Assembly: GCA_946414095.1 (NCBI GenBank)
Contig: CAMKNB010000003.1
Span: forward strand, 2,161 to 66,160
DNA: 64,000 nucleotides
Source: an uncultured Mycoplasmatota bacterium
GTDB lineage: Bacteria > Bacillota_I > Bacilli_A > RF39 > UBA660
Reading direction: 5' to 3'
Shown here piece after piece: positions 13,233 through 31,215 of this stretch. Made by a program: the position numbers and the translations under genes. The notes below the pieces were generated by a model. The model was not told where the DNA came from. It saw only the letters and a list, made by a program, of their open reading frames with translations, and did no database searches. Numbering within the stretch: the first letter of the stretch is position 1; each line of letters begins with the position of its first letter.

Positions 13233-14404
13233 TGAGAAAGTTATGTAAAATTTTTATTGTTGTTTTATGTACTTTCATATTTATTAGTAATGTTTCTGCT
13301 AAATCTTTAAAGCAAGTTAAAGAAGAACTTGCTAGAGATGAAGCTAATAGATCATCATTAATACAAAGACAAAAAAATGTTCAAAGTAACATAAAGAATG
13401 CTAAAGGGGATATAAGTGATTTAGAAAGTCAAATTGAAAAATATGAAAATGAAATAGATGAAACATTAAAAAAGATAGATGAATTAAATGATGATATTGA
13501 TGCAAAGCAAAAAGAAATAGATAATTTACTTGCTTTTATGCAAAAAGCTAAAGCAGATAATGTTTATTTAGAATATATTTTTCAAGCTAAATCATATACA
13601 GATTTTATATATAGAAGTGCAGTTGTTGAAGAATTAACTAAATATAATGATGAAGTAATTGATGAAATGTACAATATGATTGAAGAAAACAAAAAGCTTA
13701 AAGTTGAACTTCAAAATAAGATTTCTAAGAATGAAAAATCTATAAGTGATTTAGAAAAGAAACTTACTACTTATAATGTTAGTTTAAAGGATTTAGAAAC
13801 TGCTCATACAAATATAGATGATACTATTGCTGATAGAAAGAAAACATTAGCATATTATGAAAAAGTATATAAGCAAAATGGATGTAAAGAAACAGTAGAT
13901 ATTGATGAGTGTTTAACAGTAGCAAGTTCAAATGGATTTGTAAGACCAATGGCTAAAGGAACTATTTCAAGTGAGTGGGGATATAGAACTTGTCCAATCC
14001 ATGGTAAGGAACTACATTCTGGAATAGATATTGCTGTTGCTCTTGGAACACCTGTTTATGCTGCTGCTTCTGGTACAGTTGTTGGAATTACTAAAAAGAG
14101 TTCTTGTGGTGGTAATATTGTAACAATAAGGCACAATATTAAAGGTAAGATATATAGAACTAGATATATGCATCTTGCAACTATAAATGTTAAGATGGGA
14201 CAAGATGTACTTGTTACTACTAAGATTGGAACTAGTGGAGGTGGAGGCTATACTTTAAGAAGAAATGGTGGATGGGATACTTGTTCAACAGGAGCTCACT
14301 TACACTTTATGATTCTTCCAGGCTCTACTGGTAGTTCAACAATTAATCCAAGAGGTATGATAACATTTCCATCTAGAGGAAGAAGTTTTTCAAGTAGATG
14401 GTAG
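13229..14404 (+). CDS. Coiled-coil M23 (LytM) peptidoglycan endopeptidase, paralogue 1
   Basis: Signal peptide, a long heptad-rich region, then an M23 domain with an intact HxxxD (HSGIDIA) and HxH (GAHLHF). The start overlaps the ftsX stop (ATGATG/TGA). Confidence 0.8.
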   Translation: MMRKLCKIFIVVLCTFIFISNVSAKSLKQVKEELARDEANRSSLIQRQKNVQSNIKNAKGDISDLESQIEKYENEIDETLKKIDELNDDIDAKQKEIDNLLAFMQKAKADNVYLEYIFQAKSYTDFIYRSAVVEELTKYNDEVIDEMYNMIEENKKLKVELQNKISKNEKSISDLEKKLTTYNVSLKDLETAHTNIDDTIADRKKTLAYYEKVYKQNGCKETVDIDECLTVASSNGFVRPMAKGTISSEWGYRTCPIHGKELHSGIDIAVALGTPVYAAASGTVVGITKKSSCGGNIVTIRHNIKGKIYRTRYMHLATINVKMGQDVLVTTKIGTSGGGGYTLRRNGGWDTCSTGAHLHFMILPGSTGSSTINPRGMITFPSRGRSFSSRW

Positions 14405-14417
14405 TTGGGGGTATTAT

Positions 14418-15602
14418 ATGACGAAAAAATGGTTAAAGATATTATTTACGATATTTATTGCTTTTATATTTATGAGTAATATTTTTGCTGTGTCAAATAA
14501 TACGTCACTAAAAGATTTAAAAGATAAATTAGAAAAAGATAAATCAACATTAAATTCTGTTGTATCTAAACAAAATAAAGTTAAGAATAATATAAAAAAA
14601 ATTGAAGGTAATTTATCCTCAATTGCTGATAAAATAGATGCAGCCGAATTAAATATTAAAAACTCTAAAGAAAAAGTAGAAGAATTAGAAAGTGAAATAA
14701 TAAGCAAACAAAAAGAGATAGATGGATTATTAAGTTTTTTACAAATATCTAAAGGTGAAAACATTTATTTAGAGTACGTATTTAAAGCTAAATCATTTAC
14801 TGATTTTATTTATAGAAATGCAGTTGTTGAAGAATTAACTAGATATAATGATGAACTTATTGATGAAATGTATAATTTAATTGAAGAAAATAAAGAAGAG
14901 CAAGAAAGACTAAATAAAGAAATAGATGATTCTGAAAATACTATTGTTGAATTAAATGAAACATTAAAAAAATATAATCTTTCAATGGAAGATTTAGTTG
15001 ATGATCATAAGGATGCTAAAGCTGATTATGAAGCTAGTAAAAAAGAATATGAAGCTTATAAAAAAATATATAAGCAAAAAGGTTGTAAAGAAACAACCCC
15101 AATAGTTGATTGCGTTGACGTTCCTTATGCAGATGGTTTTTCAAGGCCAGTAGTTAGTGGTTTTATATCAAGTGAGTATGGTCTTAGATATCATCCAACT
15201 CTTCATTATTATAGAATGCATAATGGTGTAGATATTGCTGTTTCTATGAATACTCCGGTATACGCTTCTGCAGCTGGAATAGTTAGTAAAATTGTCAAGG
15301 TAAAAAATCCTAGAAAAGCAAATTCTAGTTGTGGTGGAAATATGGTCTATGTTAAGCATAGAATAAAAGGTAAAGAGTATACATCAGTTTATATGCATTT
15401 ACATTCTATTAATGTTAAAGTACAAGATTATGTAACATTATCTACTATAATAGGAAAATCTGGAGGAGGAGAAAGCTATGATTATTGTACTACAGGTCCT
15501 CACTTACACTTTGGAATAATGAAGGGTAGTGATTATGTTAATCCAAGAAATTATGTAAATTTTCCTTCAAAAGGTCATAAATTTACTAATAGATTTGAAT
15601 AA
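14418..15602 (+). CDS. Coiled-coil M23 (LytM) peptidoglycan endopeptidase, paralogue 2
   Basis: Same architecture as paralogue 1, with HNGVDIA and GPHLHF. It shares long blocks with paralogue 1, for example YLEY(V/I)F.AKS(F/Y)TDFIYR.AVVEELT.YNDE.IDEMYN.IEENK. Confidence 0.8.
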   Translation: MTKKWLKILFTIFIAFIFMSNIFAVSNNTSLKDLKDKLEKDKSTLNSVVSKQNKVKNNIKKIEGNLSSIADKIDAAELNIKNSKEKVEELESEIISKQKEIDGLLSFLQISKGENIYLEYVFKAKSFTDFIYRNAVVEELTRYNDELIDEMYNLIEENKEEQERLNKEIDDSENTIVELNETLKKYNLSMEDLVDDHKDAKADYEASKKEYEAYKKIYKQKGCKETTPIVDCVDVPYADGFSRPVVSGFISSEYGLRYHPTLHYYRMHNGVDIAVSMNTPVYASAAGIVSKIVKVKNPRKANSSCGGNMVYVKHRIKGKEYTSVYMHLHSINVKVQDYVTLSTIIGKSGGGESYDYCTTGPHLHFGIMKGSDYVNPRNYVNFPSKGHKFTNRFE

Positions 15603-16728: not shown

Positions 16729-18381
16729 GTGACGCAAGTGAAAAAAGATATTAAGTTAATATTTGAAGATGGTAGCGAAATGAATGTTTATTATGGAACT
16801 ACTGTTAGAGAGGTATTAAAAGAACTAAATGATGATAATTTAATGGCACTTAGAATTAATGGCCAAGCAGTATCAAGTGATTATGAAATTACTGAGGATG
16901 GTTTTGTAAATTTTATTGCTGTTGGAGATAGAATTGGTCAAAAAATATACATAAATGGTTTAAAATATATGTATATTTTGGCGGTTAAAGAAGTATTTGG
17001 GGATAAAGTAGTTGTAAACATTAAGCACTCATTAGATAAAGGTTTATATACTGAAATTGTAACTAGAAAAAAATTTGATGATAGTGTAGTACCAATAATT
17101 AAAAAGAAGATGAAGGAAATATGTTCTAGAAATTTAGATTTTAAGAGCGTTAATGTTTCTAGGGATGATGCGTATGATTATGTTACTGAATTAGGTGAAA
17201 CTGAAAAAGCATTAAACTATGCATATATGACTAATGATTCTGTCACTATGTATGAACTAGGAGATGAATATAATTATTTCTATTATATAATGCCTCCGTC
17301 AACTAAAGTATTAAATAGATTTGATTTAACTTTCATAGCACCAAATGGAATTGTACTTAGCTATCCAATAAATAATGTTGTGCCTAAATATAATCCTGCT
17401 CCTCAAGTTTTAGAAGCATTTAAGAGTTATGAGAAAAGATTATCTGCGATGGGTATTAAATATGCAGGTGAGTTAAACAAAATAATTGTTGATGGTAAAA
17501 TATCTGATTTTATTCAAACTAATGAAATTATATATGATCAAAACTTAGAAAGTGTAGCAGCTAAAGTTGCTAATGATAGACGTATACGTTCAATATTTAT
17601 ATCAGGGCCTTCTTCTAGTGGTAAAACTACTACTTCTAAGAAGTTAGCTTTGTATTTAAAATCAATGGGTCTTGATACTCTTGTATTATCTACAGATGAT
17701 TATTTCTTGAATAGAGTAGATAGTCCTAAGAAGCCAGATGGAACTTATGAATTTGAAATAGTTGATGCAATAGATATTAAATTATTTAATTCTCATCTAA
17801 AGAAATTATTAGATGGTGAAGAAGTGATTATTCCGACTTTTAATTTTATTACTGGTGAAAAAGAGTTTAAAAGAAAGCCTACATCACTAGGTAAAAATCA
17901 AATATTAGTTGTTGAAGGATTACATGCAATTAATGAAAAACTAAATGGAGTTATTGATAAAAAAAATAAACTTAGAATATATATAAGTCCATTTACTCCT
18001 CTTGCTCTTGATAGACATAATCATATATCAACAACTGATTTAAGACTTTTACGTCGTATGGTTAGAGATTATATGCATAGAGGATATTCAGCTGATCAAA
18101 CTCTTACAAATTGGATGGGTATGAGAAATAGTGAAAAAAATTATGTTTATCCATATCAAAGGGAAGCAGATGTAATATTAAATACAGCACTTAGTTATGA
18201 GATTGGAGTTTTAAGAACTTATGCTGAACCTTTACTTTATTCAGTAAGTAGAGAAAGTGAAAATTATGAAGAAGCAATTAGAATATTAAAATTCTTAAGA
18301 GGATTTTTAAATATACCAAGTGAAAATGTTCCAACAAAGAGTGTGTTAAGGGAATTTATTGGTAATAGTTACTTTGAATAG
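16729..18381 (+). CDS. Uridine kinase-family nucleoside kinase with N-terminal TGS/ThrRS-like region
   Basis: 550 aa. P-loop FISGPSSSGKTTTSKKL in the C-terminal half, followed by VVEGLHAIN. The start is a GTG at either 16729 or 16738. Confidence 0.65.
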   Translation: MTQVKKDIKLIFEDGSEMNVYYGTTVREVLKELNDDNLMALRINGQAVSSDYEITEDGFVNFIAVGDRIGQKIYINGLKYMYILAVKEVFGDKVVVNIKHSLDKGLYTEIVTRKKFDDSVVPIIKKKMKEICSRNLDFKSVNVSRDDAYDYVTELGETEKALNYAYMTNDSVTMYELGDEYNYFYYIMPPSTKVLNRFDLTFIAPNGIVLSYPINNVVPKYNPAPQVLEAFKSYEKRLSAMGIKYAGELNKIIVDGKISDFIQTNEIIYDQNLESVAAKVANDRRIRSIFISGPSSSGKTTTSKKLALYLKSMGLDTLVLSTDDYFLNRVDSPKKPDGTYEFEIVDAIDIKLFNSHLKKLLDGEEVIIPTFNFITGEKEFKRKPTSLGKNQILVVEGLHAINEKLNGVIDKKNKLRIYISPFTPLALDRHNHISTTDLRLLRRMVRDYMHRGYSADQTLTNWMGMRNSEKNYVYPYQREADVILNTALSYEIGVLRTYAEPLLYSVSRESENYEEAIRILKFLRGFLNIPSENVPTKSVLREFIGNSYFE

Positions 18382-19439: not shown

Positions 19440-21386
19440 ATGAAAAATAAAAAGGGATTTACTCTTGTTGAATTACTAGCAGTAATAGCAATACTAGCAA
19501 TACTTGTAATTTTAGCGCTACCAAATATAATGGGAATGTTTAATAATGCTAAGAAGAGTTCATTTTTAACTGAAATTAAAAGAATATATCGAGGAGCAGA
19601 ACAAGAATATGTTAAAGATTCTTTTAATACTTCAGGATCAAAAGTTTATTCTAAATGTAAAAGTGGATGTACATCTATGTTAGATATGGATGTTAGGGAT
19701 GATTTAGAATATTATATTGAAATTAATAATAGTGGAAAAGTTGTTAAGTATTATGCAAAAGATAATTCATATCAATTTAAATATGAAGGTGAAATGACTA
19801 TAAACGATATTAAAGACGCAGTTTCAATAGCCGATTTACAAGGCCCACAACTATTAATAATCAATGATGGTGTTGAAACTATTTATCCGGAACCAGCAAG
19901 CAGTGATTATTATTTAATGGCTAGCTCTTCATCAAGTTCAGGTAATTTCTTAGGAACTAATATACAAAAGAATAAAATTGAAAAAATTACTTTTGTCACA
20001 TCAATTAGTGGCCATACTGCTAATGGAGTAGATTGCTTTGACCTTAGTAAAGGATCTAATGGTTCTGTTCTTGGATGGGCAACTGATATTGATAGCAATG
20101 GGCTATATGAACTTACTATTGGATCTAATGGACAAGTATATATTTCTAGTGGTCAATATTTATTTTATGGTTTAACTAACTTGACAAATATTGAAGGAAT
20201 GGAAAATTTAAATATCTCCAAAACTAATACACTATATATGATGTTTTATGATTGTTCTAAACTTACTAGTATTGATGTAAGTCATTTTGATACAAGGCAT
20301 ATAACTAACATGGGATATTTGTTTTCAGGATGTTCTAGCTTAACAAGTTTAGATTTAAGTAATTTTGATACATCAAATGTAACTAATATGACATATATGT
20401 TTCGAAACTTTACACTAGCAAATCTAAATATAAGCAGTTTTAATACATCTAAGGTAACTAACTTTATGGGTATGTTTTATAACTGTAAAGGATTAACAAG
20501 TTTAAACTTAAGTCATTTCGACACAAGTGCTGCAACAAATATGAAACAAATGTTTAGTGGTTGTAGTAATCTAACAAGTTTAAATATAAGTAGTTTTAAT
20601 ACATCAAATGTAACTGATATGTCTGCTATGTTTTATAATTGCTCTAGTTTAACAAGTTTAGATGTAAGTCATTTTAATACAAGCAAAGTAATTAATATGA
20701 GTGATATGTTTAGAAGTTGTTCAAAATTAACAAGTATAAATGTAAGTGGATTTGATACTAATAGAGTTACAGACATGCATAGAATGTTTGCTGACTGCTA
20801 TAGGGTTACAAGTTTAGATGTAAGTCATTTTAGCACAAGTAGAGTTACTGATATGAATTATATGTTTTATGATTGTGCTAATTTAACAAGTTTAGATTTA
20901 AGTAGTTTTGATACATCTAAAGTAACTGACATGTCTTTCATGTTTAGTAAATGTATTAAATTAACATCATTAAATCTAAATAGTTTCACTAATCCATTAG
21001 TAACAAATATAAACGATATGTTTAGTGATTGTACTCAATTAGCAAGTATAAGTTTTGGAAATTTTAATACATCAAATGTTATATACATGAATAATGTATT
21101 TGAAAATTGCAAAGCATTAACTTCTCTTAACTTAAGTAGTTTTAATACATCTAAAGTTCAATATACAAAGAGTATGTTTAATGATTGTAGTAATTTAAAA
21201 ACGATATATGTTAATGATACATTTAATATTTCTAGTTTATCTTCATCTAATTCAACATTAATGTTTTATGGAGATACAAAATTAGTTGGTGGATCTGGAA
21301 CTAGATATAGTAGTTCTAAAACTGATAAAACATATGCTAGGATTGATGAAGGTACTTCTAATCCTGGATATTTTACACAAGATTGA
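19440..21386 (+). CDS. Modular type IV pilin-like protein with C-terminal BspA-type leucine-rich-repeat (26-residue repeat) domain
   Basis: Class III signal MKNKKG|FTLVELLAVIAILAILVI, with Gly at -1, Phe at +1 and Glu at +5. A ~125-aa pilin-like module comes next, then about 14 repeats of the F.xC.xLTSLDLSxFDTSxVTxMxxMF type. The protein ends in the ARIDEGTSNPGYFT motif. Confidence 0.8.
   Translation: MKNKKGFTLVELLAVIAILAILVILALPNIMGMFNNAKKSSFLTEIKRIYRGAEQEYVKDSFNTSGSKVYSKCKSGCTSMLDMDVRDDLEYYIEINNSGKVVKYYAKDNSYQFKYEGEMTINDIKDAVSIADLQGPQLLIINDGVETIYPEPASSDYYLMASSSSSSGNFLGTNIQKNKIEKITFVTSISGHTANGVDCFDLSKGSNGSVLGWATDIDSNGLYELTIGSNGQVYISSGQYLFYGLTNLTNIEGMENLNISKTNTLYMMFYDCSKLTSIDVSHFDTRHITNMGYLFSGCSSLTSLDLSNFDTSNVTNMTYMFRNFTLANLNISSFNTSKVTNFMGMFYNCKGLTSLNLSHFDTSAATNMKQMFSGCSNLTSLNISSFNTSNVTDMSAMFYNCSSLTSLDVSHFNTSKVINMSDMFRSCSKLTSINVSGFDTNRVTDMHRMFADCYRVTSLDVSHFSTSRVTDMNYMFYDCANLTSLDLSSFDTSKVTDMSFMFSKCIKLTSLNLNSFTNPLVTNINDMFSDCTQLASISFGNFNTSNVIYMNNVFENCKALTSLNLSSFNTSKVQYTKSMFNDCSNLKTIYVNDTFNISSLSSSNSTLMFYGDTKLVGGSGTRYSSSKTDKTYARIDEGTSNPGYFTQD
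20157..21215 (+). repeat. About 14 tandem 75-78-nt coding repeats (LRR units) inside the first pilin-like gene
   Basis: The periodicity is read from the translation (CSKLTSIDVSHFDT / CSSLTSLDLSNFDT / CKGLTSLNLSHFDT and so on). Confidence 0.85.
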
Positions 21387-21459
21387 TTGTACTTTATTAA
21401 AAAAAGAAAAATTATTCATTTTTCTTTTTTTATATGCTATTATTATGATAGGTGATAGT

Positions 21460-22521
21460 ATGAAAAATAAAAAAGGTTTTACTCTTGTAGAATTACTAGC
21501 AGTAATAGCAATACTAGCAATACTTGTAATTTTAGCGCTACCAAATATAATGGGAATGTTTAATAATGCTAAGAAGAGTTCATTTATAACTGAAGCAAAA
21601 AGAATATTTAGAGGTGCTAGTGAGAATTATGTTAAGGATTCATTTAATTCATCTGGATCTAAAGTTTATTCAAAATGTAAAGAAGGATGCAATAATGAAC
21701 TTGATATGGATGTAAGGGATGACTTAGATTATTATATTGAAATAAATAGTAGTGGAAAAGTTGAAAAGTATTATTTAAGAGATAATTCATATCAATTTAT
21801 ATACGAAGGTGAAATGACTATAAATGATATTAATGATGCAGAAGTATTGGGAAATTTAGACAAATCTAATATTATAAATATTAGTGATGAAGGATTTTAT
21901 TTTGGAAAAGAGCCATCATGTAAAAACAAATTAGTAACAACTCGAGGTAGTTTTTCTGACGAACTTGATGTTAAGGAAATATGTTTTAATTTAGTTAATG
22001 ATGGTTATGTTTATCAGAATCAAGATACTGGTTGGTTTCAACAGTACAGTGACAGATACAAATATTTAGCAATAATTGTTCCATATGGTAATTTACAAGA
22101 AAATTCTTTTATAAGAGTTTATGAAGATTCAACTAAAAATAAATTATTAACAGAAATAACTTACAATGATAAAAAATTATCTAGAATAAATATAAATGAT
22201 ATGAATGATTACAATAGTGAAACTAGTGTAGTTAAAATAATAGGTGAATACTTAAAAGAAAATGTATATATTGAAAAATCAGAAGGATTAAGTTATAGTC
22301 TATCATATACATATGAAAATGCTGCATCTGCTAATAAGATTTATAGTGGTCCATGGATAACTGATGAATATGTTATTAACCAAATTAATACATTAAAAAG
22401 AAATTTATCAAAAATGAATTATTATGTTACTGGAATAAGCAAATGTAATATAGAGGAAGCTAATTGTTCACGCTACACATATCAAGTAGATTCGGTCTAT
22501 AAAGATTCTATTAAAAAATAA
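21460..22521 (+). CDS. Modular type IV pilin-like protein, unique C-terminal domain
   Basis: Same prepilin signal and ~125-aa N-terminal module as the gene at 19440. The ATG at 21460 follows AGGTGA. The track ORF from 21286 runs through the upstream terminator. I recognised no family for the ~225-aa C-terminal part. Confidence 0.75.
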   Translation: MKNKKGFTLVELLAVIAILAILVILALPNIMGMFNNAKKSSFITEAKRIFRGASENYVKDSFNSSGSKVYSKCKEGCNNELDMDVRDDLDYYIEINSSGKVEKYYLRDNSYQFIYEGEMTINDINDAEVLGNLDKSNIINISDEGFYFGKEPSCKNKLVTTRGSFSDELDVKEICFNLVNDGYVYQNQDTGWFQQYSDRYKYLAIIVPYGNLQENSFIRVYEDSTKNKLLTEITYNDKKLSRININDMNDYNSETSVVKIIGEYLKENVYIEKSEGLSYSLSYTYENAASANKIYSGPWITDEYVINQINTLKRNLSKMNYYVTGISKCNIEEANCSRYTYQVDSVYKDSIKK

Positions 22522-22541
22522 TAATTCAAGAGGAGAAATAT

Positions 22542-23807
22542 ATGAAAAATAAAAAAGGATTTACATTAGTAGAACTACTAGCAGTAATAGCGATACTAGC
22601 AATACTTGTAATAATAGCACTTCCAAATATAATGGGGATGTTTAATAGTGCAAAAGAAAGTACATTTATTACTGAACTTAAAAAAATATATAGAGGAGCA
22701 GAAGAAAAATATGTAAAAGATTCATTTAATAGTTCAGGAGCAAAGATATATTCAAAGTGTAGTGGATGTACAAATGAACTAGATATGCAAGTTAGAGATG
22801 ATCTTGAGTATTATATTGAGGTTAATAGTAGTGGAAAAATTGTCAAATACTATGCTCATGATAATTCATATCAATTTTCATATGATGGTGAAATGACTAT
22901 AAATGATATTGATAATATAAAAAATATATCAAACTTAAATGAGGACGAAAAAATAAAAATATCATCTTCTGGTGCAACCTCAATTGGTAAAGAAAAAATT
23001 GTTTGTAAAAGAGCAAAAACTCTGCATAGTGAAATTTGTACTAGTGGATTTTATTCTAGTGGAAGATATAATGGTTATTGTAAAGCTGCTGGATATACTA
23101 GCAATGGTTCTAAAGCGACAACTACAATTACTTATGGTAGTATAGGAACTAATGGAGTACTTAATCCTGGTGATGCGTTTGATTGTGATGTAAACAGCGA
23201 TGGTATATATAATCCTGAAACAGAGAGATTTTATTATGTTTCTCCAAAGGATGGAGATAATTCTAGTGATACTGTTGTATTGATATATTATGCTAATGTA
23301 GCAAATGGAATAGAGGATAATATAACAAAATATGCGTATGGAGATATTTTTTGTGATGGTCCAAATGTTGGATACTTACAATTACCAACAACTAGTCAAT
23401 GGAATAATAAATATTTAAAAAATAATTTTGAAAGACAAATTAAAACCATATCAGGTGGCACAATAATTGATCACGATAGTGGTATATATAATTTACCAAT
23501 TTTTGTATATAATAATAGGGCTGCAAGATTTTTGACTTACCAAGAATTTAGAAGCGGGTGTAATAATGGCAATATTACTACTAATGGAGATTTAGATAAA
23601 TGCATCTTTTTTATGGAAAACACATCATTTGCTAATAGTGAAAAGGCATCAGGATTTTGGCTTGAAAATTGGTCATCTAGTGTATATTATGTATATGGGA
23701 CAAATGGATTTGTTCGTCGCGTATCTTCTATTGATGTTCCAACTAATAGCAATACTGTAGGTATACGTCCAGCCATTGAACTAAAAAAGAATAATTTAGA
23801 ATACTAA
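22542..23807 (+). CDS. Modular type IV pilin-like protein, Cys-rich C-terminal domain ending in a GIRPAIEL module
   Basis: Same prepilin signal and N-terminal module, though more diverged at the nucleotide level. GAGGAG SD. The C-terminal ~290 aa differ from both neighbouring pilin-like genes. Confidence 0.75.
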   Translation: MKNKKGFTLVELLAVIAILAILVIIALPNIMGMFNSAKESTFITELKKIYRGAEEKYVKDSFNSSGAKIYSKCSGCTNELDMQVRDDLEYYIEVNSSGKIVKYYAHDNSYQFSYDGEMTINDIDNIKNISNLNEDEKIKISSSGATSIGKEKIVCKRAKTLHSEICTSGFYSSGRYNGYCKAAGYTSNGSKATTTITYGSIGTNGVLNPGDAFDCDVNSDGIYNPETERFYYVSPKDGDNSSDTVVLIYYANVANGIEDNITKYAYGDIFCDGPNVGYLQLPTTSQWNNKYLKNNFERQIKTISGGTIIDHDSGIYNLPIFVYNNRAARFLTYQEFRSGCNNGNITTNGDLDKCIFFMENTSFANSEKASGFWLENWSSSVYYVYGTNGFVRRVSSIDVPTNSNTVGIRPAIELKKNNLEY

Positions 23808-23834
23808 AAGATAGATTGCTATCTTTTTATTTTG
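23807..23834 (+). terminator. Intrinsic terminator after pilin cassette
   Basis: Stem aaagatag / ctatcttt with a 4-nt loop, then a T-rich tail. Confidence 0.6.
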
Positions 23835-23900: not shown

Positions 23901-26828
23901 ATGAAGTTTAATATAAAGAAGTTTAAAAATAATAGTATGTTTTTTATAGTATCTGCATTAGTATTAGTAGTGTTATCATTACTAAGTTTTTTGATTGACA
24001 GAAGTAGTAATACTTATGAAAAGAAAGATTTAAATGACAAAGATATAAATATAAATAAACTTGTATTAAATGAAATAATGACATCTAATAAGGGTGTTAT
24101 AGCTGATGAAGATGGTAAACTCTATGATTATTTAGAAATATATAATGGAAATGATAAAGATATTAATTTAAATGGATATGGTCTTAGTGATGAAGACACT
24201 AAAGCTAAATTCGTATTTGGTGATATAACTATTAAAGCTAAATCATATTTAGTTGTGTATTTAAGTGGAACATCTAAAGGTGGTGTTCATGCTAATTTTA
24301 AATTAAAAAGTGGTGGAGGAGAAGTAGTAGCACTACTTAAACCTAATGGTAAAGCAGTTGATGCAATTGAAACTGTTGAACTATCTAGTAATAATGTTAT
24401 GGCTAGAGATGAAAATGGTTCATGGGTAATTATGGAAAAACCTACACCGGGATTCTCAAATAATATAAGTGGTTATAATGCGTTTTTAGATTCATTAAAG
24501 AGTGAAGAAAAGGGAAATTTACAAATAAATGAAATACTTGCAAGCAATAAAGGAAACTTTAAAAATCAATCTGGTGAATATAGTGGTTATATTGAAATTA
24601 AGAATATAAGTGATAAGAGTGTTAATCTTGATGGATATAGTTTATCAAATGATGAAAGTGTTAGTTTTAAATGGCAATTTCCTAATACTACATTAGGTAG
24701 CGGAGACGTTATTGTAGTATATACAAGTGGTGTTAGTAGTAAAGAAGGAGAACTTAGTACTTCGTTTAAACTAAAGAGTAAAAATGGTGATGTAGTTTTA
24801 AGTAATAAAGAAGGAAAAGTAATAGATAGAATCAAATATGAAAATCTTGGTAATGGAATTGCATTAATTAAACAAGGAGACAAATTATTAGAGAATAATT
24901 CTATTTCTCCTGGATATGATAATACTGTGGATGGAATTAAAAGTTTCCAAAAGAAGTATTTATCTAATCCTAAAGATTTAATGATTAATGAAGTTATGAA
25001 TTCTAATTATTCACATTTAGCACAAAATGGTGGTAATTATTATGATTGGATAGAACTATATAATAATAGTGGTAGTACGATAAAACTTAGTGATTATTGT
25101 TTAACTACTAATACAAATACTATATGTATGTATACTCTTCCAGATGTTGAACTTGGAAAGGGAGAATACTATGTGGTAATGGCTTCAGGTGATGAAAAAC
25201 TATCTAATAGTAAGTATAAACATACTAATTTTAAATTATCTGATACTGAAGGCATTTATTTAGTTAAATCTAAAACAATTGTTGATTCAATGTTAATGGC
25301 AAATATACCTACTGGTTACTCAATGGGAAGAGGGGACTCATACGGAATTTATTATTTCAGCAAACCAACTCCTAAAGAGAAAAATGGTAGTGGAACAGAG
25401 GCTGTGTCGTATTTACCAAGTGCTTCAGTTAAAAGTGGAGCATATAATGATAAAAAAAGTATAGAAGTATCCTTGAGCGGATACGGAAATATATACTATA
25501 CTACTGATGGTAGTAAACCAACAACTTCATCTAATATATACAGTAGTCCTCTTACTATTAAGAAGACTACTGTTTTAAGAATAATGAGTAAAGAGAGTGG
25601 AAAACTTAAAAGTGACACTGAGACTTATTCATATATTATGAATGAAAACCATAAATTGCCAATACTAAGCCTTGCTATTAATAGTAGTGATTTATACAAT
25701 GTAAATGTTCATACTGCTTTAAACAGTAGTGTAATAGAGCCAGTAAATGTTACTTTAATTGAAAAAGATGGCAGTGGTTTTAATATAAATGGTGGACTTA
25801 AACTATTTGGTGGATCTACTAGAAGCTATAGAAAGAAAAGCTATGAAATTAAATTTAAAAAGAAATATGGAGATGCGCATTTAAATTATAAATTATTTGA
25901 TACTGTTGATAGTTCAGTATTTGAATCAATTGTACTTAGAACTGGTTCTCAAGATGAATTTCAATATTCTAAGAGAGTTATAATAAGAGATATAGTTGCA
26001 ACGTCTTTAATGCATGATTTTACTAAGGTAGATGTTCAAGCATATAAACCAGTTGTTGTTTATATTAATGGTAAATATTGGGGATTATATTTTATCCGTG
26101 AAAAAGTTGATGAAAATTTTGTTGCTAATCATTATAATGTTAAAACAACAGAAAAAGATACTGATATTTTAAGAATTGATGGAGAAGTTAAAAGTGGTAG
26201 TAGTAAAGCATATAATTCTATGATGAGTTTTATCAATAATAATTCACTTGCTAATAAGAATAATTATGCTAAGATTAAGGAACAAATAGATATTGAAAAT
26301 TTATGTGATTTTTGGATAGCTGAGATATGGACGAACAATTATGATATTGTAAATACTAGATATTTTAGAAATCCTAATGTTGACAATGGTAAATGGAAGT
26401 TTGTTTTCTATGATTTGGATAGTGGATTTTATGTAGATTATGGAAGAGAAGGAAATTCGTTTAATTATTACACAAAAACATCTGGTATTGGATATGGTAA
26501 TTTTAGTACAGCATTGCTTAGAAATTTAATGAAGAGTAGTGAATTTAAGAAAACTTTTTTAGAAAGATTATCTTATAATCTTAATAATACATGGTCTACT
26601 AAAAATATTAGTAAAAAAATAGATGATGTAATAGCTGAAATAGGAAAAGATGAAATAAAGAGAAATTTAAGTAGATGGAATGTTTGTTCTTATAGTGAAT
26701 GGGAAAATCATGTTAAGGATTTGAAATCATTTTCTAAATCAAGAACTACATCTATCATTAAGGAAGCTAAGTCATATTTTAATTTATCTAGTAGTGATGT
26801 TAAGAAGTATTTTGGTGATGTGAAATGA
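23901..26828 (+). CDS. Membrane-anchored CotH kinase family protein with three lamin-tail-like domains
   Basis: N-terminal TM (MFFIVSALVLVVLSLLSFLI). Three LTD-like repeats (LNEIMTSNKG..YLEIYN, INEILASNKG..YIEIKN, INEVMNSNYS..WIELYN). A YYTTDGSKPTTSS chitobiase-C-like module. C-terminal CotH-like region (VLRTGSQDE..., VVYINGKYWGLYFIREKVDENF, FVFYDLDSGF). Confidence 0.75.
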   Translation: MKFNIKKFKNNSMFFIVSALVLVVLSLLSFLIDRSSNTYEKKDLNDKDININKLVLNEIMTSNKGVIADEDGKLYDYLEIYNGNDKDINLNGYGLSDEDTKAKFVFGDITIKAKSYLVVYLSGTSKGGVHANFKLKSGGGEVVALLKPNGKAVDAIETVELSSNNVMARDENGSWVIMEKPTPGFSNNISGYNAFLDSLKSEEKGNLQINEILASNKGNFKNQSGEYSGYIEIKNISDKSVNLDGYSLSNDESVSFKWQFPNTTLGSGDVIVVYTSGVSSKEGELSTSFKLKSKNGDVVLSNKEGKVIDRIKYENLGNGIALIKQGDKLLENNSISPGYDNTVDGIKSFQKKYLSNPKDLMINEVMNSNYSHLAQNGGNYYDWIELYNNSGSTIKLSDYCLTTNTNTICMYTLPDVELGKGEYYVVMASGDEKLSNSKYKHTNFKLSDTEGIYLVKSKTIVDSMLMANIPTGYSMGRGDSYGIYYFSKPTPKEKNGSGTEAVSYLPSASVKSGAYNDKKSIEVSLSGYGNIYYTTDGSKPTTSSNIYSSPLTIKKTTVLRIMSKESGKLKSDTETYSYIMNENHKLPILSLAINSSDLYNVNVHTALNSSVIEPVNVTLIEKDGSGFNINGGLKLFGGSTRSYRKKSYEIKFKKKYGDAHLNYKLFDTVDSSVFESIVLRTGSQDEFQYSKRVIIRDIVATSLMHDFTKVDVQAYKPVVVYINGKYWGLYFIREKVDENFVANHYNVKTTEKDTDILRIDGEVKSGSSKAYNSMMSFINNNSLANKNNYAKIKEQIDIENLCDFWIAEIWTNNYDIVNTRYFRNPNVDNGKWKFVFYDLDSGFYVDYGREGNSFNYYTKTSGIGYGNFSTALLRNLMKSSEFKKTFLERLSYNLNNTWSTKNISKKIDDVIAEIGKDEIKRNLSRWNVCSYSEWENHVKDLKSFSKSRTTSIIKEAKSYFNLSSSDVKKYFGDVK

Positions 26829-27511
26829 AAAAGTATAAATATAGACATGAATTAAAGTTTAAAATATCTAATTCTGCGGCTGAGGTATTAAAACAAAAAC
26901 TATCATTAATATTAGATAAAGATAATAATGCTTATTATGAAGATGGATCATATTTAATTAAAAGCTTATATTTTGATGATTTGAATTCTAATTCATATTA
27001 TGAAAAAATGGATGGAATATTATATAGGAAAAAATATAGAATTAGAATATATAATAATGATGATAGTTTCATAAGACTTGAGAAAAAAATGAAACATAAT
27101 AATATGACTGCTAAGGAACAAATGTTGATTTCAAAAGATATATATAGTAAAATATTAAATGGTAAAATAAATGATATTGATGATGCTGAAGGTTTGTTAC
27201 TTGAATTTTTAACAGATACTAAAGTACTTGGACTAATACCTTCAATAATAGTAGGTTATCATAGAACTGCATTTATTTATCCGATAAGTGATGTTAGAAT
27301 TACATTTGATTCTAATATTGAAAGTGGGCTTTATAATTATGATTTGTTTGATAATAAGATGCCTACATATAGAGTTGATGAACCTGGTAAACAGGTGTTA
27401 GAAGTAAAATTTAATGAAGTATTACCTTTACATATTGCATCAATATTAGCTGATATTCCTTCGTGTAGGGAAGCAGTTAGTAAATTTGCAATATGCAGAA
27501 GTATTAAATAA
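26825..27511 (+). CDS. VTC-domain (triphosphate tunnel, polyphosphate polymerase-like) protein
   Basis: 228 aa beginning KYRHELKFKIS (ExK tunnel signature), with further E/K/R strands (YRIRIYN, IRLEKKMK, VLEVKF). The start overlaps the CotH stop (ATGA). Confidence 0.6.
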   Translation: MKKYKYRHELKFKISNSAAEVLKQKLSLILDKDNNAYYEDGSYLIKSLYFDDLNSNSYYEKMDGILYRKKYRIRIYNNDDSFIRLEKKMKHNNMTAKEQMLISKDIYSKILNGKINDIDDAEGLLLEFLTDTKVLGLIPSIIVGYHRTAFIYPISDVRITFDSNIESGLYNYDLFDNKMPTYRVDEPGKQVLEVKFNEVLPLHIASILADIPSCREAVSKFAICRSIK

Positions 27512-27521
27512 GGAGTGAATT

Positions 27522-28208
27522 ATGAGTATAGTTGATACAATTAAAAAATCAGTTTTGGATAATTTTACAGGAACTGTTTCTGTAGGAAGTATGTTACTTT
27601 CATTATTAGTAGCATTCTTAGTTGGAATATTTATTATTTATGTTTATAGAAAGACATATACTGGAGTTGTTTACTCTAAAGCATTTGCATTATGTATATT
27701 AATGCTTTCTATGGTTACTGCGATGATAATTAGAACAATTAGTTCTAATATCAGTCTTTCTTTAGGTATGGTTGGTGCTTTATCTATCGTAAGATTTAGA
27801 ACAGCAGTTAAAGAACCTGTTGATACAGGATTTATGTTTTGGGGTATATCTGCAGGTATCATGGCAGGAGCTGGATTATATTTAATAGCTTTAATTGCTT
27901 CTTTGGGAATTGGTATTTTATATTTTGTAACATATTTAATGGGATTTAAAGTAGCTAATAGATATTTGCTTGTATTAAAGTATGATGCTTCTGCACATAA
28001 TGATGTTGTTAGAAAATTAAAAACTCTTAAGAAATTTAAAATTAGAAGTAAATCAATATTTGGTAGTCAAATTGAACTTTCTTTAGAAGTTGACTTAAGG
28101 GAAAATAGCAGAGGAAGTATTGATACAAGTATTGTTGATGGATTTAGTTCAATGGATGGAGTAGTTAATGCTAGTTTAATAGCATATCAAAATGATTTTG
28201 GAGATTAG
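27522..28208 (+). CDS. DUF4956-like polytopic membrane protein
   Basis: 228 aa with 4-5 TM helices, the conserved-looking GALSIVRFRTAVKEPVDTGF segment and a ~90-aa soluble C-terminal domain. It starts 10 nt after the VTC gene. Confidence 0.55.
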   Translation: MSIVDTIKKSVLDNFTGTVSVGSMLLSLLVAFLVGIFIIYVYRKTYTGVVYSKAFALCILMLSMVTAMIIRTISSNISLSLGMVGALSIVRFRTAVKEPVDTGFMFWGISAGIMAGAGLYLIALIASLGIGILYFVTYLMGFKVANRYLLVLKYDASAHNDVVRKLKTLKKFKIRSKSIFGSQIELSLEVDLRENSRGSIDTSIVDGFSSMDGVVNASLIAYQNDFGD

Positions 28209-28219
28209 GAGTATAATAT

Positions 28220-29602
28220 ATGGCCACAAGAAAAGTTCTTAAAATAACACCTGTTTTAGTAGCACTAAATATTTTAGTGTTACTTATTATTGTGGTTTTT
28301 TATACTGCAAGATTAATAAAGTATTATAAATTAGAAAATGGACATAAGAAAGAAGATACAACTATATTAGTAGATGAAATTAAAAAGCATCAGAGTATGC
28401 TTGATGAAACTAAAGGACTTGTGTTTGATGAAGAAACAAAAGTATATACATATAAGGGAAATGTAAGTGATAATTACTTAATGTACTCTGGTATGATGTT
28501 TAGAATAGTTTCTATTGATAAAAATGAAAATATTAAGTTAGTTAGTGAAGACAATGTTACTTTAATATATCCAGGATTTACTAATGGATATGAAAAATCA
28601 TATGTTAATAAATGGTTAAATAGTAGTGAAGAAAAATATAGCGGTATTTATGAGAATACTCTTGTAAATGCTGGAGGTGTCTTAGATAAAACTGAATATT
28701 GTGAAGATGTAATTGATGATTTATCTAAAATTGAATGTAATAATTCTACAGATAAATATAAAATAACATTATTATCATTATATGATTATAAAATTGCTGG
28801 TGGTAAAGCTAGTTATTTAAATAATGATACTTCTTTCAACTTAGGTTCATTAAATAGTATGAATGCTAATTATTATGTAACTGAAGATGGAGAAATAAGT
28901 TTAAATCAAAAATCTAGTAGAGCAATTAGTATTAGACCAGTTATTACTATAAATTCTGGTACTGAACTTGTAAGTGGTACTGGTAAAAAGAATGATCCAT
29001 ATATTATTGAAAAACATGATGTTGATACTTTAGGAGATACATATATAAATAGTATCGTTAAAATTGATGGTAATACATATAAAGTAATTGAAATAGGTGA
29101 AGATAAAGTTAAATTAGCAGGTACTAGTGTATTAAAAGATGGCGAAGATAATTTATTAATTGCTTTTTCTAATAAAATTAGTGCATATCAAGATAATACA
29201 ATTGTAGGGAAGTATTTAAATACTACTTTCTTAAATTCTTTAAGCGTTAAAGATAGTGTAGTATCAAGTGATTGGTATAATGGTACTTTAACTCTTGCTG
29301 ATTTAGATTATTCAAGTATTAGAAATTCTAAATCAACTGCTAAAGTGGGTATGCTTACTATTGGAGACATGTATATTAATGATGTTAGCAATGTGTTTAC
29401 TACTCTTAGGGGTGTTGAAGCAAGTAATATAATTAATGTTATTAATGAGAGTGGAAATTTATTTGCAGATCAAATTTCTTCTAAATATAATGTTAGAGCT
29501 GCATTTTATTTAAAATCTGACTTAGAAATAAAGAGTGGTTCTGGAACTATGGATAGTCCATATGAGTTAGGAGTAAATGATGAAAAAGAAAAAGAAGAGT
29601 AA
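28220..29602 (+). CDS. Membrane-anchored extracytoplasmic protein with two repeated modules
   Basis: 460 aa with an N-terminal TM (ITPVLVALNILVLLIIVVFY). Two modules each end in a ...(I/V)R(P/A)(V/A)... G(T/S)G...(D/S)PY(I/E)(I/L) pattern (SIRPVITINSGTELVSGTGKKNDPYIIE and VRAAFYLKSDLEIKSGSGTMDSPYEL). Confidence 0.5.
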   Translation: MATRKVLKITPVLVALNILVLLIIVVFYTARLIKYYKLENGHKKEDTTILVDEIKKHQSMLDETKGLVFDEETKVYTYKGNVSDNYLMYSGMMFRIVSIDKNENIKLVSEDNVTLIYPGFTNGYEKSYVNKWLNSSEEKYSGIYENTLVNAGGVLDKTEYCEDVIDDLSKIECNNSTDKYKITLLSLYDYKIAGGKASYLNNDTSFNLGSLNSMNANYYVTEDGEISLNQKSSRAISIRPVITINSGTELVSGTGKKNDPYIIEKHDVDTLGDTYINSIVKIDGNTYKVIEIGEDKVKLAGTSVLKDGEDNLLIAFSNKISAYQDNTIVGKYLNTTFLNSLSVKDSVVSSDWYNGTLTLADLDYSSIRNSKSTAKVGMLTIGDMYINDVSNVFTTLRGVEASNIINVINESGNLFADQISSKYNVRAAFYLKSDLEIKSGSGTMDSPYELGVNDEKEKEE

Positions 29603-30656
29603 GTTAAGTATATTTTTAATAACTATTGATGTTATTGCATTGATATGTTTCTTTTTAGCATATGGGCCAATATCTTATTTTAGAGATTTGCTTGTTACAA
29701 CTGCGATGACAACTATGAATCATAGATATTTTGCATATGTATTATATAGTGAAGATCAAGTTAAGGAAATACTTGATAATAATAAATTAATTGAACCAGA
29801 AGAAGATACAAATTCTTCTGAGATAACTTTTAATCCTAATTTTAATGCTGATAGTTATGAATCTGTTTATGAAGAACAAATTCTCAAAAAAGATGAGGGT
29901 AATGATGTTTATAAGATTGTGAATATTAAAGGTGATAAATGGAAAGGATATATGGTTGTTATATATGATCCTTCTGATATACAATTAGTATTTGCATCTA
30001 ATTATGGTAAGGGTGGAAAGTATTTGTCAGATATGGCAAAAGAAAATAAAGCTTTAGTAGCAATGAATGCATCTGGTGTTAAAACATCTGTAGGTAAGAA
30101 TCCAGTAACTGGAACAGCAATATTAAACGGTAAAATATATGATACTGGTAAAAAAATTAATAAAGGTGGAGGCCTTATTGGATTTACTAAAAATAATGTA
30201 CTAATGCTTACTAAGAAGAGTGGAAAAGAAGCAATTAAAGATGGTATGGATAGAGCTGTTGAGTTTGGACCATTTCTAATAGTTAATGGTAAACCTGCTA
30301 CATTTAAAGGTAATGGTGGTTGGGGAATTGCTAATAGAACAGCTATAGCACAAAGACAAGATGGAATTGTATTATTTGTTGTTATTGATGGTAGACAAGC
30401 TGGATCTATTGGTATATCAATGCCTGATTTAGTAAAATTATTTCAAAAGTATGGAGCCTACAATGCTGCTAACTTAGATGGTGGTGGTTCTAGCGCATTA
30501 TATGCAAGAAAAACACTTACAGCTAAAAGTGGATCTTTACTTAATAATCCAGTAGGTTATGGATATTCTGGTGAAAGAAGACTTCCAAATGCATGGATGG
30601 TTCTTCCAAGTGCAATTGAAAAGCATAATAAAACAAGTGAGGGTGAAGGTGAATAA
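29577..30656 (+). CDS. Membrane-anchored phosphodiester glycosidase family protein (NAGPA-like, DUF2233)
   Basis: N-terminal TM followed by NRTAIAQRQDGIVLFVVIDGRQAGSIGISMPDLVKLFQKYGAYNAANLDGGGSSALY, a hallmark DGR...NLDGGGS block. The start is at 29577 or 29580. It overlaps the upstream gene. Confidence 0.7.
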   Translation: MMKKKKKSKLSIFLITIDVIALICFFLAYGPISYFRDLLVTTAMTTMNHRYFAYVLYSEDQVKEILDNNKLIEPEEDTNSSEITFNPNFNADSYESVYEEQILKKDEGNDVYKIVNIKGDKWKGYMVVIYDPSDIQLVFASNYGKGGKYLSDMAKENKALVAMNASGVKTSVGKNPVTGTAILNGKIYDTGKKINKGGGLIGFTKNNVLMLTKKSGKEAIKDGMDRAVEFGPFLIVNGKPATFKGNGGWGIANRTAIAQRQDGIVLFVVIDGRQAGSIGISMPDLVKLFQKYGAYNAANLDGGGSSALYARKTLTAKSGSLLNNPVGYGYSGERRLPNAWMVLPSAIEKHNKTSEGEGE

Positions 30657-30657
30657 T

Positions 30658-31215
30658 ATGGAAACAAAAGATACAAAAGCAAGAGTATATTTAGTCTGTG
30701 GAAAAGCTAGACATGGTAAAGATACATTTTCTGCATATTTAAAAAATGCTTATGAAGAAAATGGTAAGAAATTAATAATAACTCAATTATCAAAATACAT
30801 TAAATATTATGCTCGTGAAATGACTGGTTGGAATTTGACCGAAGAAGATAAACCAAGAGAATTATTGCAACAACTTGGTACTAGTGTAATTCGTGAGAAG
30901 TTAGGAAAAGAAGACTTATTTATTAATAGAGTTATTGATGATATAGATGTTTTCTCATGCTTTTATGACGCAGTTATTATTAGTGATGCTAGACTTAAAA
31001 AAGAAGTTGAAGATTTAAGAAAAGCTATACCTAATATTGTAGTAGTTCATATTAATAGACCTGATTTTGATAATGGTCTTACTCCCGAACAAAAGATGCA
31101 TAAAACTGAAATTGATTTAGATGATTATGATAAATTTGACGAAGAGATTGTAAATACTACATTAGAGAAACTAGAAGAAGATGCTAAAAAAATATACACA
31201 AAATATGAAGGTTAG
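30658..31215 (+). CDS. P-loop protein resembling deoxynucleotide monophosphate kinase
   Basis: 185 aa. It has VCGKARHGKDT (a GxxxxGKD P-loop as in the T4 gp1-type dNMP kinase family) and ISDARLKKEVEDLRK (compare DxRFxNE). The ATG at 30658 follows GAAGGTGA. The track ORF from 30559 overlaps the previous gene. Confidence 0.45.
   Translation: METKDTKARVYLVCGKARHGKDTFSAYLKNAYEENGKKLIITQLSKYIKYYAREMTGWNLTEEDKPRELLQQLGTSVIREKLGKEDLFINRVIDDIDVFSCFYDAVIISDARLKKEVEDLRKAIPNIVVVHINRPDFDNGLTPEQKMHKTEIDLDDYDKFDEEIVNTTLEKLEEDAKKIYTKYEG

Follow-up and report, generated by a model that had tools for sequence, protein, structure and literature searches.

Three gene families, encoding a CotH-family kinase, a protein with the polyphosphate polymerase domain of the vacuolar transporter chaperone (VTC) and a DUF4956 membrane protein, are known together with DUF4832 as accessory genes contiguous with the pel operons of Gram-positive bacteria, namely streptococci, clostridia and bifidobacteria (Whitfield et al., bioRxiv 10.1101/768473). 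Without its DUF4956 or its CotH gene, Streptococcus intermedius aggregated less by more than 50% in artificial sputum medium. That study describes an ACT domain in the membrane protein, which it calls MgtC-like, and states that synteny of the three genes was not found outside Pel loci (PMC12345266). A further described counterpart is NELoc-2 of Clostridium perfringens, where VTC genes are each followed by a gene for a membrane protein of ~225 amino acids (aa), in the company of CotH and a chitin-synthase-like transferase (PMC2879425); a polysaccharide deacetylase is predicted in most NELoc-2-positive strains (PMC11677781). Here we describe a CotH-VTC-DUF4956 triad in a 64,000-nucleotide (nt) stretch of DNA (hereafter ‘the window’) from an uncultured Mycoplasmatota bacterium (assembly GCA_946414095.1, contig CAMKNB010000003.1, positions 2,161 to 66,160), and compare it with these systems.

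The triad as a gene cluster is already known, and RefSeq annotates it routinely. A first-pass annotation of the window, made by a model from the letters alone, had held that it has no experimentally defined function; the S. intermedius deletions and the published synteny overtake that statement, which stands for enzymology, none being reported in the literature searched for a bacterial VTC protein or an extracellular CotH.

Results

Conservation of the triad within and beyond Pel loci

The three genes of the window are contiguous and co-oriented, as in the Pel accessory module:

23901..26828, + strand, CotH-family kinase gene (975 aa; predicted to be membrane-anchored with its bulk outside; open reading frame (ORF), Pfam and topology)
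26825..27511, + strand, VTC-domain gene (228 aa, soluble; ORF, Pfam VTC, AlphaFold2 (AF2) model and Foldseek)
27522..28208, + strand, DUF4956 gene (228 aa; Pfam, AF2 model and Foldseek with the C-terminal domain)

The ATGA at 26825-26828 doubles as CotH stop and VTC start, and a spacer of 10 nt separates VTC from DUF4956; ORF coordinates, overlap and spacer in the first-pass annotation all matched exactly on re-reading. Its suggestion of translational coupling agrees with the overlap and with the overlapping or tight spacing seen in relatives, including a Pseudobutyrivibrio plasmid, and Shine-Dalgarno-like sequences (GGTGA, GGAG, AGGAG) precede three downstream starts. Pfam assigned all of the families named there (CotH, three LTD, VTC and DUF4956), while no NCBIfam model matches any of the three proteins.

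Species-representative genomes were scanned with a 16-sequence VTC alignment, which gave 596 confirmed relatives. The best 80 were kept and, because these are the loci nearest the window VTC, the locus proportions given here describe one part of the family. Adjacency of VTC and DUF4956 was counted on loci with flanks of at least 800 nt (n=66), and the arrangement of CotH on those with at least 4 kb on both sides (n=51). DUF4956 was present in 66/66 loci and adjoined VTC on the same strand in 65/66, an adjacency far beyond chance: the two are an obligate pair. CotH was present, in any order, in 43/51 loci (84%), and the order CotH-VTC-DUF4956 was found in 35/51, so that the synteny on which the earlier interpretation depended is conserved.

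An LTD-type CotH was found in 26/51 loci and Pel linkage (called from PelF-like DUF3492+GT1, DUF2194, TPR and DUF4832 neighbours) in 12/51; the two occurred together in none of the 51. The 64-kb window itself holds no PelF (DUF3492+GT1), DUF2194, DUF4832, Pel or other polysaccharide synthase. The published restriction of triad synteny to Pel loci therefore does not hold, since the window and most sampled loci lie outside such loci. Pairwise distances of the triad proteins correlate (r = 0.76-0.81, Mantel p = 0.001, shared organismal phylogeny being uncontrolled), and the nearest VTC neighbour shares the same CotH class in 44/44 cases.

The nearest relatives are metagenome-assembled genomes (MAGs) of uncultured gut ‘Bacilli’ or ‘Tenericutes’. 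Others come from Erysipelotrichaceae, many Clostridia (C. difficile and F. prausnitzii among them), Collinsella, and MAGs labelled Alloprevotella and Muribaculaceae; close relatives (83-100% identity) are abundant in metagenomes. On a Pseudobutyrivibrio plasmid the triad keeps the same order, with overlapping genes, within a heteropolysaccharide cluster, where RefSeq labels its products ‘CotH kinase family protein’, ‘polyphosphate polymerase domain-containing protein’ and ‘DUF4956 domain-containing protein’. The module thus recurs in three kinds of surface-glycan locus: Pel, the chitin-synthase-like NELoc-2 and this heteropolysaccharide cluster.

VTC homologues of 25-37% identity were also found on four plasmid and three ‘Bacteriophage sp.’ gut fragments. 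The phage-labelled records (MT838813.1, MT837266.1 and MT836222.1; VTC identity 29-37%) are short, from human faeces, and may be misassigned bacterial fragments. These seven fragments make no case for a module that is phage- or plasmid-borne in general.

The VTC protein

The VTC protein matches Pfam VTC (PF09359) over residues 7-223 (E=1.2e-30; 107.2 bits against a cut-off of 23; profile positions 2-229 of 235) and has no hydrophobic segment by hydropathy. It belongs to a large family (4,317 clusters at 50% identity, E<=1e-3). Searches of PDB with single sequences were weak or empty, and family profiles were needed: the VTC-family profile retrieved yeast Vtc4 (E=5e-13) and Vtc2 (3e-7). The AF2 model is of high confidence (predicted local distance difference test (pLDDT) 97, predicted template modelling score 0.92), and its top 13 Foldseek matches were all Vtc4, Vtc3 or Vtc2 (E down to 7e-13, TM score 0.72), with other triphosphate tunnel enzymes (ygiF, SaTTM, AtTTM3 and CyaB cyclases) weaker at 4e-8 or worse.

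Residues invariant among 111 diverse VTC homologues include E9, K11, R72, R74, E86, K88, Y145, R158, D162, E193, K195 and K220, with S219 present in at least 90%. The sequence YRHELKF, read in the first-pass annotation as the ExK signature of a VTC/CYTH tunnel, corresponds to R7-x-E9-x-K11, in which E9 and K11 are invariant and R7 is found in at least 90%; family match, Vtc4-like fold and tunnel residues all bear that reading out. In the alignment to Vtc4 (made via chain 5iiq, with a numbering offset of +3 corrected), R72, R74 and E193 fall on R264, R266 and E426. K11 aligns to a lysine that we take to be K200, and S219/K220 are presumably equivalent to S457/K458 (numbering of Hothorn et al. 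2009). As modelled and aligned, the VTC protein is a Vtc4-like triphosphate tunnel enzyme with its key catalytic residues kept. The allele R264A/R266A/E426N of Vtc4 is catalytically impaired, and it was this form of the complex that was used for cryo-EM (PMC9911596).

The Pfam name might nonetheless mislead for bacteria, and the protein might be a triphosphate tunnel enzyme of the usual kind, a hydrolase or a cyclase (tripolyphosphatase, NTPase or similar), a reading that we regard as unlikely. Most characterised enzymes of the superfamily are of this sort, ygiF, SaTTM, AtTTM3 and CyaB are the next-best fold matches, and in the first strand the invariant E9, part of the classical ExExK strand, stands where Vtc4 has Thr, so that the chemistry may differ from that of Vtc4. 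However, Vtc4, Vtc3 and Vtc2 are the best matches in both sequence and fold by 4-5 orders of magnitude in E-value, the equivalents of R264, R266, E426, K200 and S457/K458 are invariant or nearly so, and a soluble hydrolase would leave the obligate membrane partner unexplained.

Some VTC homologues are longer (365-620 aa), their extra N-terminal tails being disordered, basic and Pro-rich, with no Pfam domain. Fusion of DUF4956 to VTC, considered as Rosetta-stone evidence, was rejected, as the long homologues add just such tails. In P0130, P0135, P0140, P0143, P0148, P0172, P0174, P0183, P0222 and P0177 the extensions span 140-395 residues and are rich in Pro, Glu and Arg; some hold internal repeats.

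The CotH protein

The features of the CotH protein, all of which lie in the first gene of the triad, are as follows:

23940..23996, + strand, predicted signal-anchor helix, residues 14-32 (Kyte-Doolittle value 2.97 in a 19-residue window)
24057..25370, + strand, three LTD repeats, ~residues 53-490 (Pfam LTD; outer limits approximate)
25431..25634, + strand, CHB_HEX_C_1 / Fn3_assoc Ig-like module, residues 511-578 (E=3e-14 and 3.1e-11)
25800..26750, + strand, CotH kinase domain, residues 634-950 (Pfam; profile against 5JD9)
26343-26345 and 26412-26414, + strand, catalytic Asp equivalents D815 and D838 (alignment to 5JD9)

The N-terminal 13 residues are Lys-rich (4 K/R, 0 D/E), and MKFNIKKFKNNSM precedes the anchor; hydropathy and the positive-inside rule give a single N-terminal anchor with 943 residues outside. 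The LTD match (E=9e-45) covers three stretches, the best at residues 202-314, whose repeats start with LNEI, INEI and INEV motifs at ~residues 57, 210 and 363, and the YYTTDGSKPT sequence falls inside the CHB_HEX_C_1/Fn3_assoc module. Domain make-up and the placement of the kinase part outside the membrane are both as the first-pass annotation had them; a cytoplasmic placement is not predicted. In three other loci, stand-alone proteins of two to three LTD repeats lie beside VTC-DUF4956 (L035 8522-9970, L043 8368-9441 and L051 2948-4192), and the LTD stalk can therefore be a separate gene.

The kinase domain matches Pfam CotH (PF08757) at E=1.1e-45 (157 bits against a cut-off of 23.8), and a profile of 25 CotH domains retrieves B. 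cereus CotH (5JD9) at E=1.1e-39. In the family alignment D815 and D838 are the sole invariant Asp residues, and they fall on the NFD and WDYD motifs of 5JD9. In B. subtilis CotH the validated catalytic residues are D228 and D251, mutation of which inactivates the kinase (PMC7821199). The spacing of D815 and D838 is the same 23 residues, and because of this match the window enzyme looks active, in a position predicted to be outside the membrane.

That this CotH is a spore-coat kinase as in Bacillus, its neighbours being unrelated, is effectively excluded. It is a CotH family member with the catalytic Asp residues and spo0A is present in the window at 39152-39907, but the predicted signal-anchor, the 943 residues outside and the LTD and CHB_HEX_C domains of extracellular type indicate an extracytoplasmic body, the triad also occurs in non-sporulating taxa (Collinsella, Alloprevotella- and Muribaculaceae-labelled MAGs, Streptococcus), and its linkage to VTC-DUF4956 is near-obligate.

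The DUF4956 membrane protein

The third protein matches Pfam DUF4956 (PF16316) at E=1.4e-10 (41.6 bits against a cut-off of 30.6), as do all 49 VTC-neighbour proteins analysed. Hydropathy shows a polytopic protein with a soluble tail of ~90 residues. The motif block SIVRFRTAVKEP, which lies within the invariant core of the family, had been associated with DUF4956 in the first-pass annotation, and the description as a polytopic membrane protein of this family is upheld by Pfam, the neighbours and the motif alike. Across the 49 diverse sequences G82-I89, R91, R93, A95 and K97 are invariant (core GMVGALSI-V-R-F-R-T-A-V-K), as are Y42, G48, F106, G112 and E185. The central motif is:

27756..27818, + strand, invariant DUF4956 motif LSLGMVGALSIVRFRTAVKEP, residues 79-99 (49-sequence conservation; probably at the cytoplasmic end of transmembrane helix (TM) 3)

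In the AF2 model, built from a shallower alignment than the locus-derived set, helices at 21-45, 53-72, 75-95, 99-116 and 120-139 are followed by a beta-alpha-beta-beta-alpha-beta domain. Sub-threshold Pfam MgtC matches occur in 25/49 members (best 2.6e-4), and in Foldseek the C-terminal domain alone finds matches, to ACT domains and the C-domains of MgtC (2LQJ and 7QA5, E ~0.01-0.02). These weak signals of sequence and fold suggest an MgtC-like protein of about five TM helices and an ACT-like domain. The invariant residues fall in two motifs, YxKTYxGVxYS after TM1 and VRFRTAVK(D/E)P after TM3, one of which forms an R-x-R-x-x-x-K basic cluster; both would lie on the cytoplasmic face when the helix order is counted back from a cytoplasmic ACT domain.

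The six-gene unit and its surroundings

The conserved unit in this lineage is of six genes, the triad being followed by three more, with a terminator-like hairpin upstream:

23806..23833, + strand, terminator-like hairpin of 9-bp stem and 4-nt loop, then UUAUUUU (sequence read; RNA fold)
28220..29602, + strand, protein U (460 aa; N-terminal anchor and two tandem copies of an extracellular domain; topology and internal repeat)
29577..30656, + strand, NAGPA phosphodiester glycosidase (359 aa; N-terminal anchor, catalytic domain predicted outside; Pfam E=2e-38)
30658..31215, + strand, small cytoplasmic DNMK-like P-loop kinase (185 aa; Pfam DNMK E=9.8e-9)

The hairpin stands directly after the stop of the upstream pilin-like gene and folds at -7.4 kcal/mol (z=-2.6; 3/200 shuffles fold equally well), which suggests that the CotH gene begins a new transcription unit. 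A consensus terminator scan reported no intergenic terminator, and missed this hairpin because it has too few G-C pairs; a promoter scan was uninformative, with 125 sites against 116 expected in DNA of 29% GC.

Protein U has no Pfam or NCBIfam match, and among its homologues Pfam DUF6273 appeared in one, at no better than E=1.8. Each of its repeats ends in VRP(V/A)..L and then G-x-G-T-x-x-x-P-Y, and in L007 domains of this type close a 1186-aa protein with many Ig-like repeats. A domain shared with the upstream pilin-like proteins was rejected (best BLASTP E=0.006 over 41 residues). U is linked to the triad in 9 loci and NAGPA in 7/45. Both are partners of the triad in the nearest Bacilli clade alone, and they stay linked to it in L012 and L013, where they have moved upstream to the other strand. 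The ORF of the DNMK-like kinase as listed (30559-31215) overlaps NAGPA by 98 nt; since the orthologues in L001-L005 are of 185 aa, its start is probably M34 at 30658. It is linked to the triad in the closest relatives only, and its membership of the module is uncertain.

The six-gene module sits inside the gap-pgk operon, the DNMK-like kinase ending 9 nt before pgk. The window has 28.6% GC, with every ORF that received a family assignment on the + strand, and its context is one of housekeeping: a release factor gene, ftsEX, two PcsB-like genes, whiA and gap precede the insert, and pgk, tpi, a giant Big_2 protein, spo0A, iPGM and ribosomal protein genes follow it. Contigs with a VTC of 84% identity, at least one of them from a human gut metagenome, carry glmS, then directly the whole six-gene block, and after it pgk-tpi-spo0A-iPGM; in relatives glmS (with or without GH3) lies between gap and CotH, replacing or beside the pilin-like genes.

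Several other features of the window were recorded. The gap-pgk gap (within 18393-41459) measures ~11.8 kb and holds three pilin-like surface proteins as well as the CotH module, and that between tpi and iPGM holds a 1976-aa protein with 11 Big_2 repeats and spo0A (39152-39907, in an AT-rich, compact, one-strand genome), so the glycolytic operon is interrupted twice. The pilin-like proteins (19440-23807) are large (360-650 aa) and start with the prepilin-type N-terminal methylation motif, an unusual use of it; one carries DUF285/BspA-type leucine-rich repeats, the leader pattern is also seen in relatives, and ORF 21286 probably begins near its own residue 59, the site of the motif. Two tandem PcsB-like paralogues (coiled coil and M23 peptidase) come directly after ftsE/ftsX at 13229-15602. 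Directly upstream of gap, at 16729-18381, is a 550-aa protein with a phosphoribulokinase/uridine-kinase domain at residues 289-485, its N-terminal 280 residues without family match; it is conserved in L004 and L005. A 771-aa ORF between iPGM and the ribosomal protein operon (41542-43857) has no credible family match.

Discussion

We tentatively propose that the triad is a co-inherited cell-envelope module, in which a phosphoanhydride is made at the membrane and relayed outward and a surface polymer is phosphorylated. DUF4956 would form an oligomer, at whose inner face VTC would turn ATP into polyphosphate or a similar phosphoanhydride; the oligomer would pass or relay the product outward with the help of the inside-negative membrane potential, and the polarity for export would be the same as at the yeast vacuole (lumen-positive). 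CotH, held outside on its stalk of Ig-like domains, would phosphorylate a surface polymer. The recurrence of the module in exopolysaccharide loci makes a glycan, or a protein associated with one, the most probable target, and NAGPA and U may act on the same surface material in this lineage. In favour of the scheme are the catalytic residues kept in VTC and CotH, the predicted distribution of the parts over both sides of the membrane, the conserved gene order and co-divergence, the company of surface-glycan genes (NAGPA here, glmS and GH3 in relatives), the loss of Pel-dependent aggregation on deletion of DUF4956 or CotH in S. intermedius, and the basic residues that line the yeast channel too. 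The scheme is weakest on the source of phosphate for CotH, exported product or ATP, and we think it improbable that CotH takes the exported polymer as donor. Little credence is likewise given to the fullest version, in which VTC and DUF4956 form a polyphosphate synthase-exporter independent of the eukaryotic channel and the exported polymer is donor or attached group for CotH on surface glycans.

A number of observations weigh against the envelope proposal. To our knowledge, ATP is the sole phosphodonor known for CotH, and MgtC relatives are known as regulators, not transporters. The VTC protein has the Glu at position 9 described above in place of the Thr of Vtc4, and the literature searched holds no report of polyphosphate polymerase activity or enzymology for a bacterial VTC. 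The pair stands without CotH in 8/51 loci. The DUF4956 model is of moderate confidence (pLDDT 72), and the top 50 of 1190 fold matches to this monomer model include no TM chain of Vtc1 or Vtc4. In S. intermedius, finally, deletion of DUF4956 raised Pel, deletion of CotH lowered it and deletion of VTC gave no reported difference from wild type (PMC12345266); the silence of the VTC deletion argues against a strict dependence of CotH on VTC-made polyphosphate. It is because of that silent deletion, the apparently MgtC-like DUF4956 and the negative literature search for enzymology that our confidence in the proposal stays low.

The first-pass annotation had gone further and suggested that VTC and its membrane partner could be a ‘split bacterial analogue’ of the eukaryotic complex. 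The Vtc4-like tunnel, with its key residues, speaks for this, but the membrane partner has no counterpart by descent: homology of DUF4956 to the VTC membrane channel was rejected, an absence of evidence from a monomer model and not proof. With DUF4956 apparently MgtC-like and no match to the Vtc1 or Vtc4 TM chains among the top 50, the pair is a functional analogue at most.

Many of the same observations bear on the main rival, a regulatory explanation, which we consider possible, if rather doubtful. DUF4956 would here be an MgtC-like membrane regulator of phosphate or ATP homeostasis whose ACT-like domain senses a cytoplasmic ligand; VTC would serve it by making or consuming a signal, polyphosphate or triphosphate, in the cytoplasm; there would be no export, and CotH would work alone outside, with environmental ATP or in a binding role, co-regulated with production of the surface polymer. 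The MgtC-like sequence and fold signals favour this, as do the predicted cytoplasmic facing of the ACT domain and all conserved motifs, the loci where the pair lacks CotH, which are of housekeeping context, and the S. intermedius phenotypes, in which opposite effects on Pel and a silent VTC are unlike a linear pathway. It leaves unexplained, however, the translational coupling and co-divergence of a kinase outside the membrane with two proteins acting inside, in 84% of loci, and also the invariant basic cluster within a glycine-rich TM segment.

ATP is scarce outside the cell, and kinases that work there are short of an energy source. A polymerase on the cytoplasmic side would meet this need by passing energy-rich polymeric phosphate across the membrane, and would also offer bacteria a second way to polyphosphate, independent of PPK. 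The fullest version of the scheme, if true, would be the first known supply of energy for phosphorylation beyond the bacterial membrane, and one that is widespread among gut Bacillota, Bacteroidota and Actinomycetota. The module is common, with about 4,300 VTC clusters at 50% identity. It is found in the medically relevant C. difficile, F. prausnitzii, necrotic-enteritis C. perfringens and S. milleri group, and its occurrence follows that of exopolysaccharide loci responsible for aggregation and biofilm. Two results hold whether or not export is correct, and redirect the study of the module: it occurs outside Pel loci too, and its membrane subunit appears MgtC-like. The question of mechanism is an interesting one and directly testable.

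Comparison with known systems

Individual components have well-described relatives. The yeast VTC complex (Vtc4/Vtc3/Vtc1; PDB 3G3Q, 7YTJ and 8I6V) shares with the window protein the tunnel fold and the catalytic Arg, Arg, Glu and Lys, and likewise pairs a cytoplasmic enzyme with a membrane component whose far side would be electrically positive in both. The yeast channel is lined by basic residues (PMC9911596). The window protein differs in being a tunnel domain alone, with no SPX and no fused 3-TM domain, in having E9 for Thr in the first strand, and in that its membrane partner is encoded separately, appears MgtC-like and showed no similarity to the VTC channel.

The Bacillus CotH spore-coat kinase (PDB 5JD9) has a homologous kinase domain and shares both catalytic Asp residues, but is a soluble protein of ~360 aa in a mother cell with ATP, whereas the window CotH is of 975 aa, anchored and predicted to lie outside the cell. 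MgtC/SapB/YhiD proteins (PF02308; PDB 2LQJ, 7QA5) resemble the DUF4956 model in having about five TM helices and then a cytoplasmic ACT-like domain, and one DUF4956 homologue was named YhiD by JGI; the fold match is weak (E ~0.01), however, and Pfam keeps DUF4956 apart as a family of its own, marked by the invariant GMVGALSIVRFRTAVK motif and by VTC as obligate neighbour. The NAGPA ‘uncovering enzyme’ family (PF09992) shares its phosphodiester glycosidase domain with the window glycosidase, which is predicted to face outward and whose link to the triad is limited to the nearest Bacilli clade.

The closest counterparts at the level of the locus are the Pel and NELoc-2 modules. The Pel cotH-PPP-DUF4956(-DUF4832) module (S. 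intermedius SIR_1594/1593/1592) holds the same three families contiguously, with a secreted or anchored CotH, a soluble protein with a polyphosphate polymerase domain and an MgtC-like ACT membrane protein. The window lacks pelDEA(DA)FG and DUF4832, and its triad has gap, pilin-like genes, U, NAGPA and pgk as neighbours; its CotH carries an anchor, three LTD and CHB_HEX_C before the kinase, whereas Pel-type CotH has the kinase followed by FN3, and U and NAGPA are its partners where the Pel module has the DUF4832 glycoside hydrolase. In NELoc-2 the ~225-aa membrane protein, annotated as tubulin/FtsZ, is probably a DUF4956 candidate; that locus differs in a VTC-membrane pair duplicated around a resolvase, in a short CotH (497 aa) and in being a chromosomal island linked to necrotic-enteritis strains. 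What is new in the locus described here, set beside these, is the long LTD-type CotH, the partnership with NAGPA and U, the absence of a Pel locus and the insertion between gap and pgk in gut Bacilli of reduced genome, together with the quantitative result that VTC and DUF4956 form an obligate pair.

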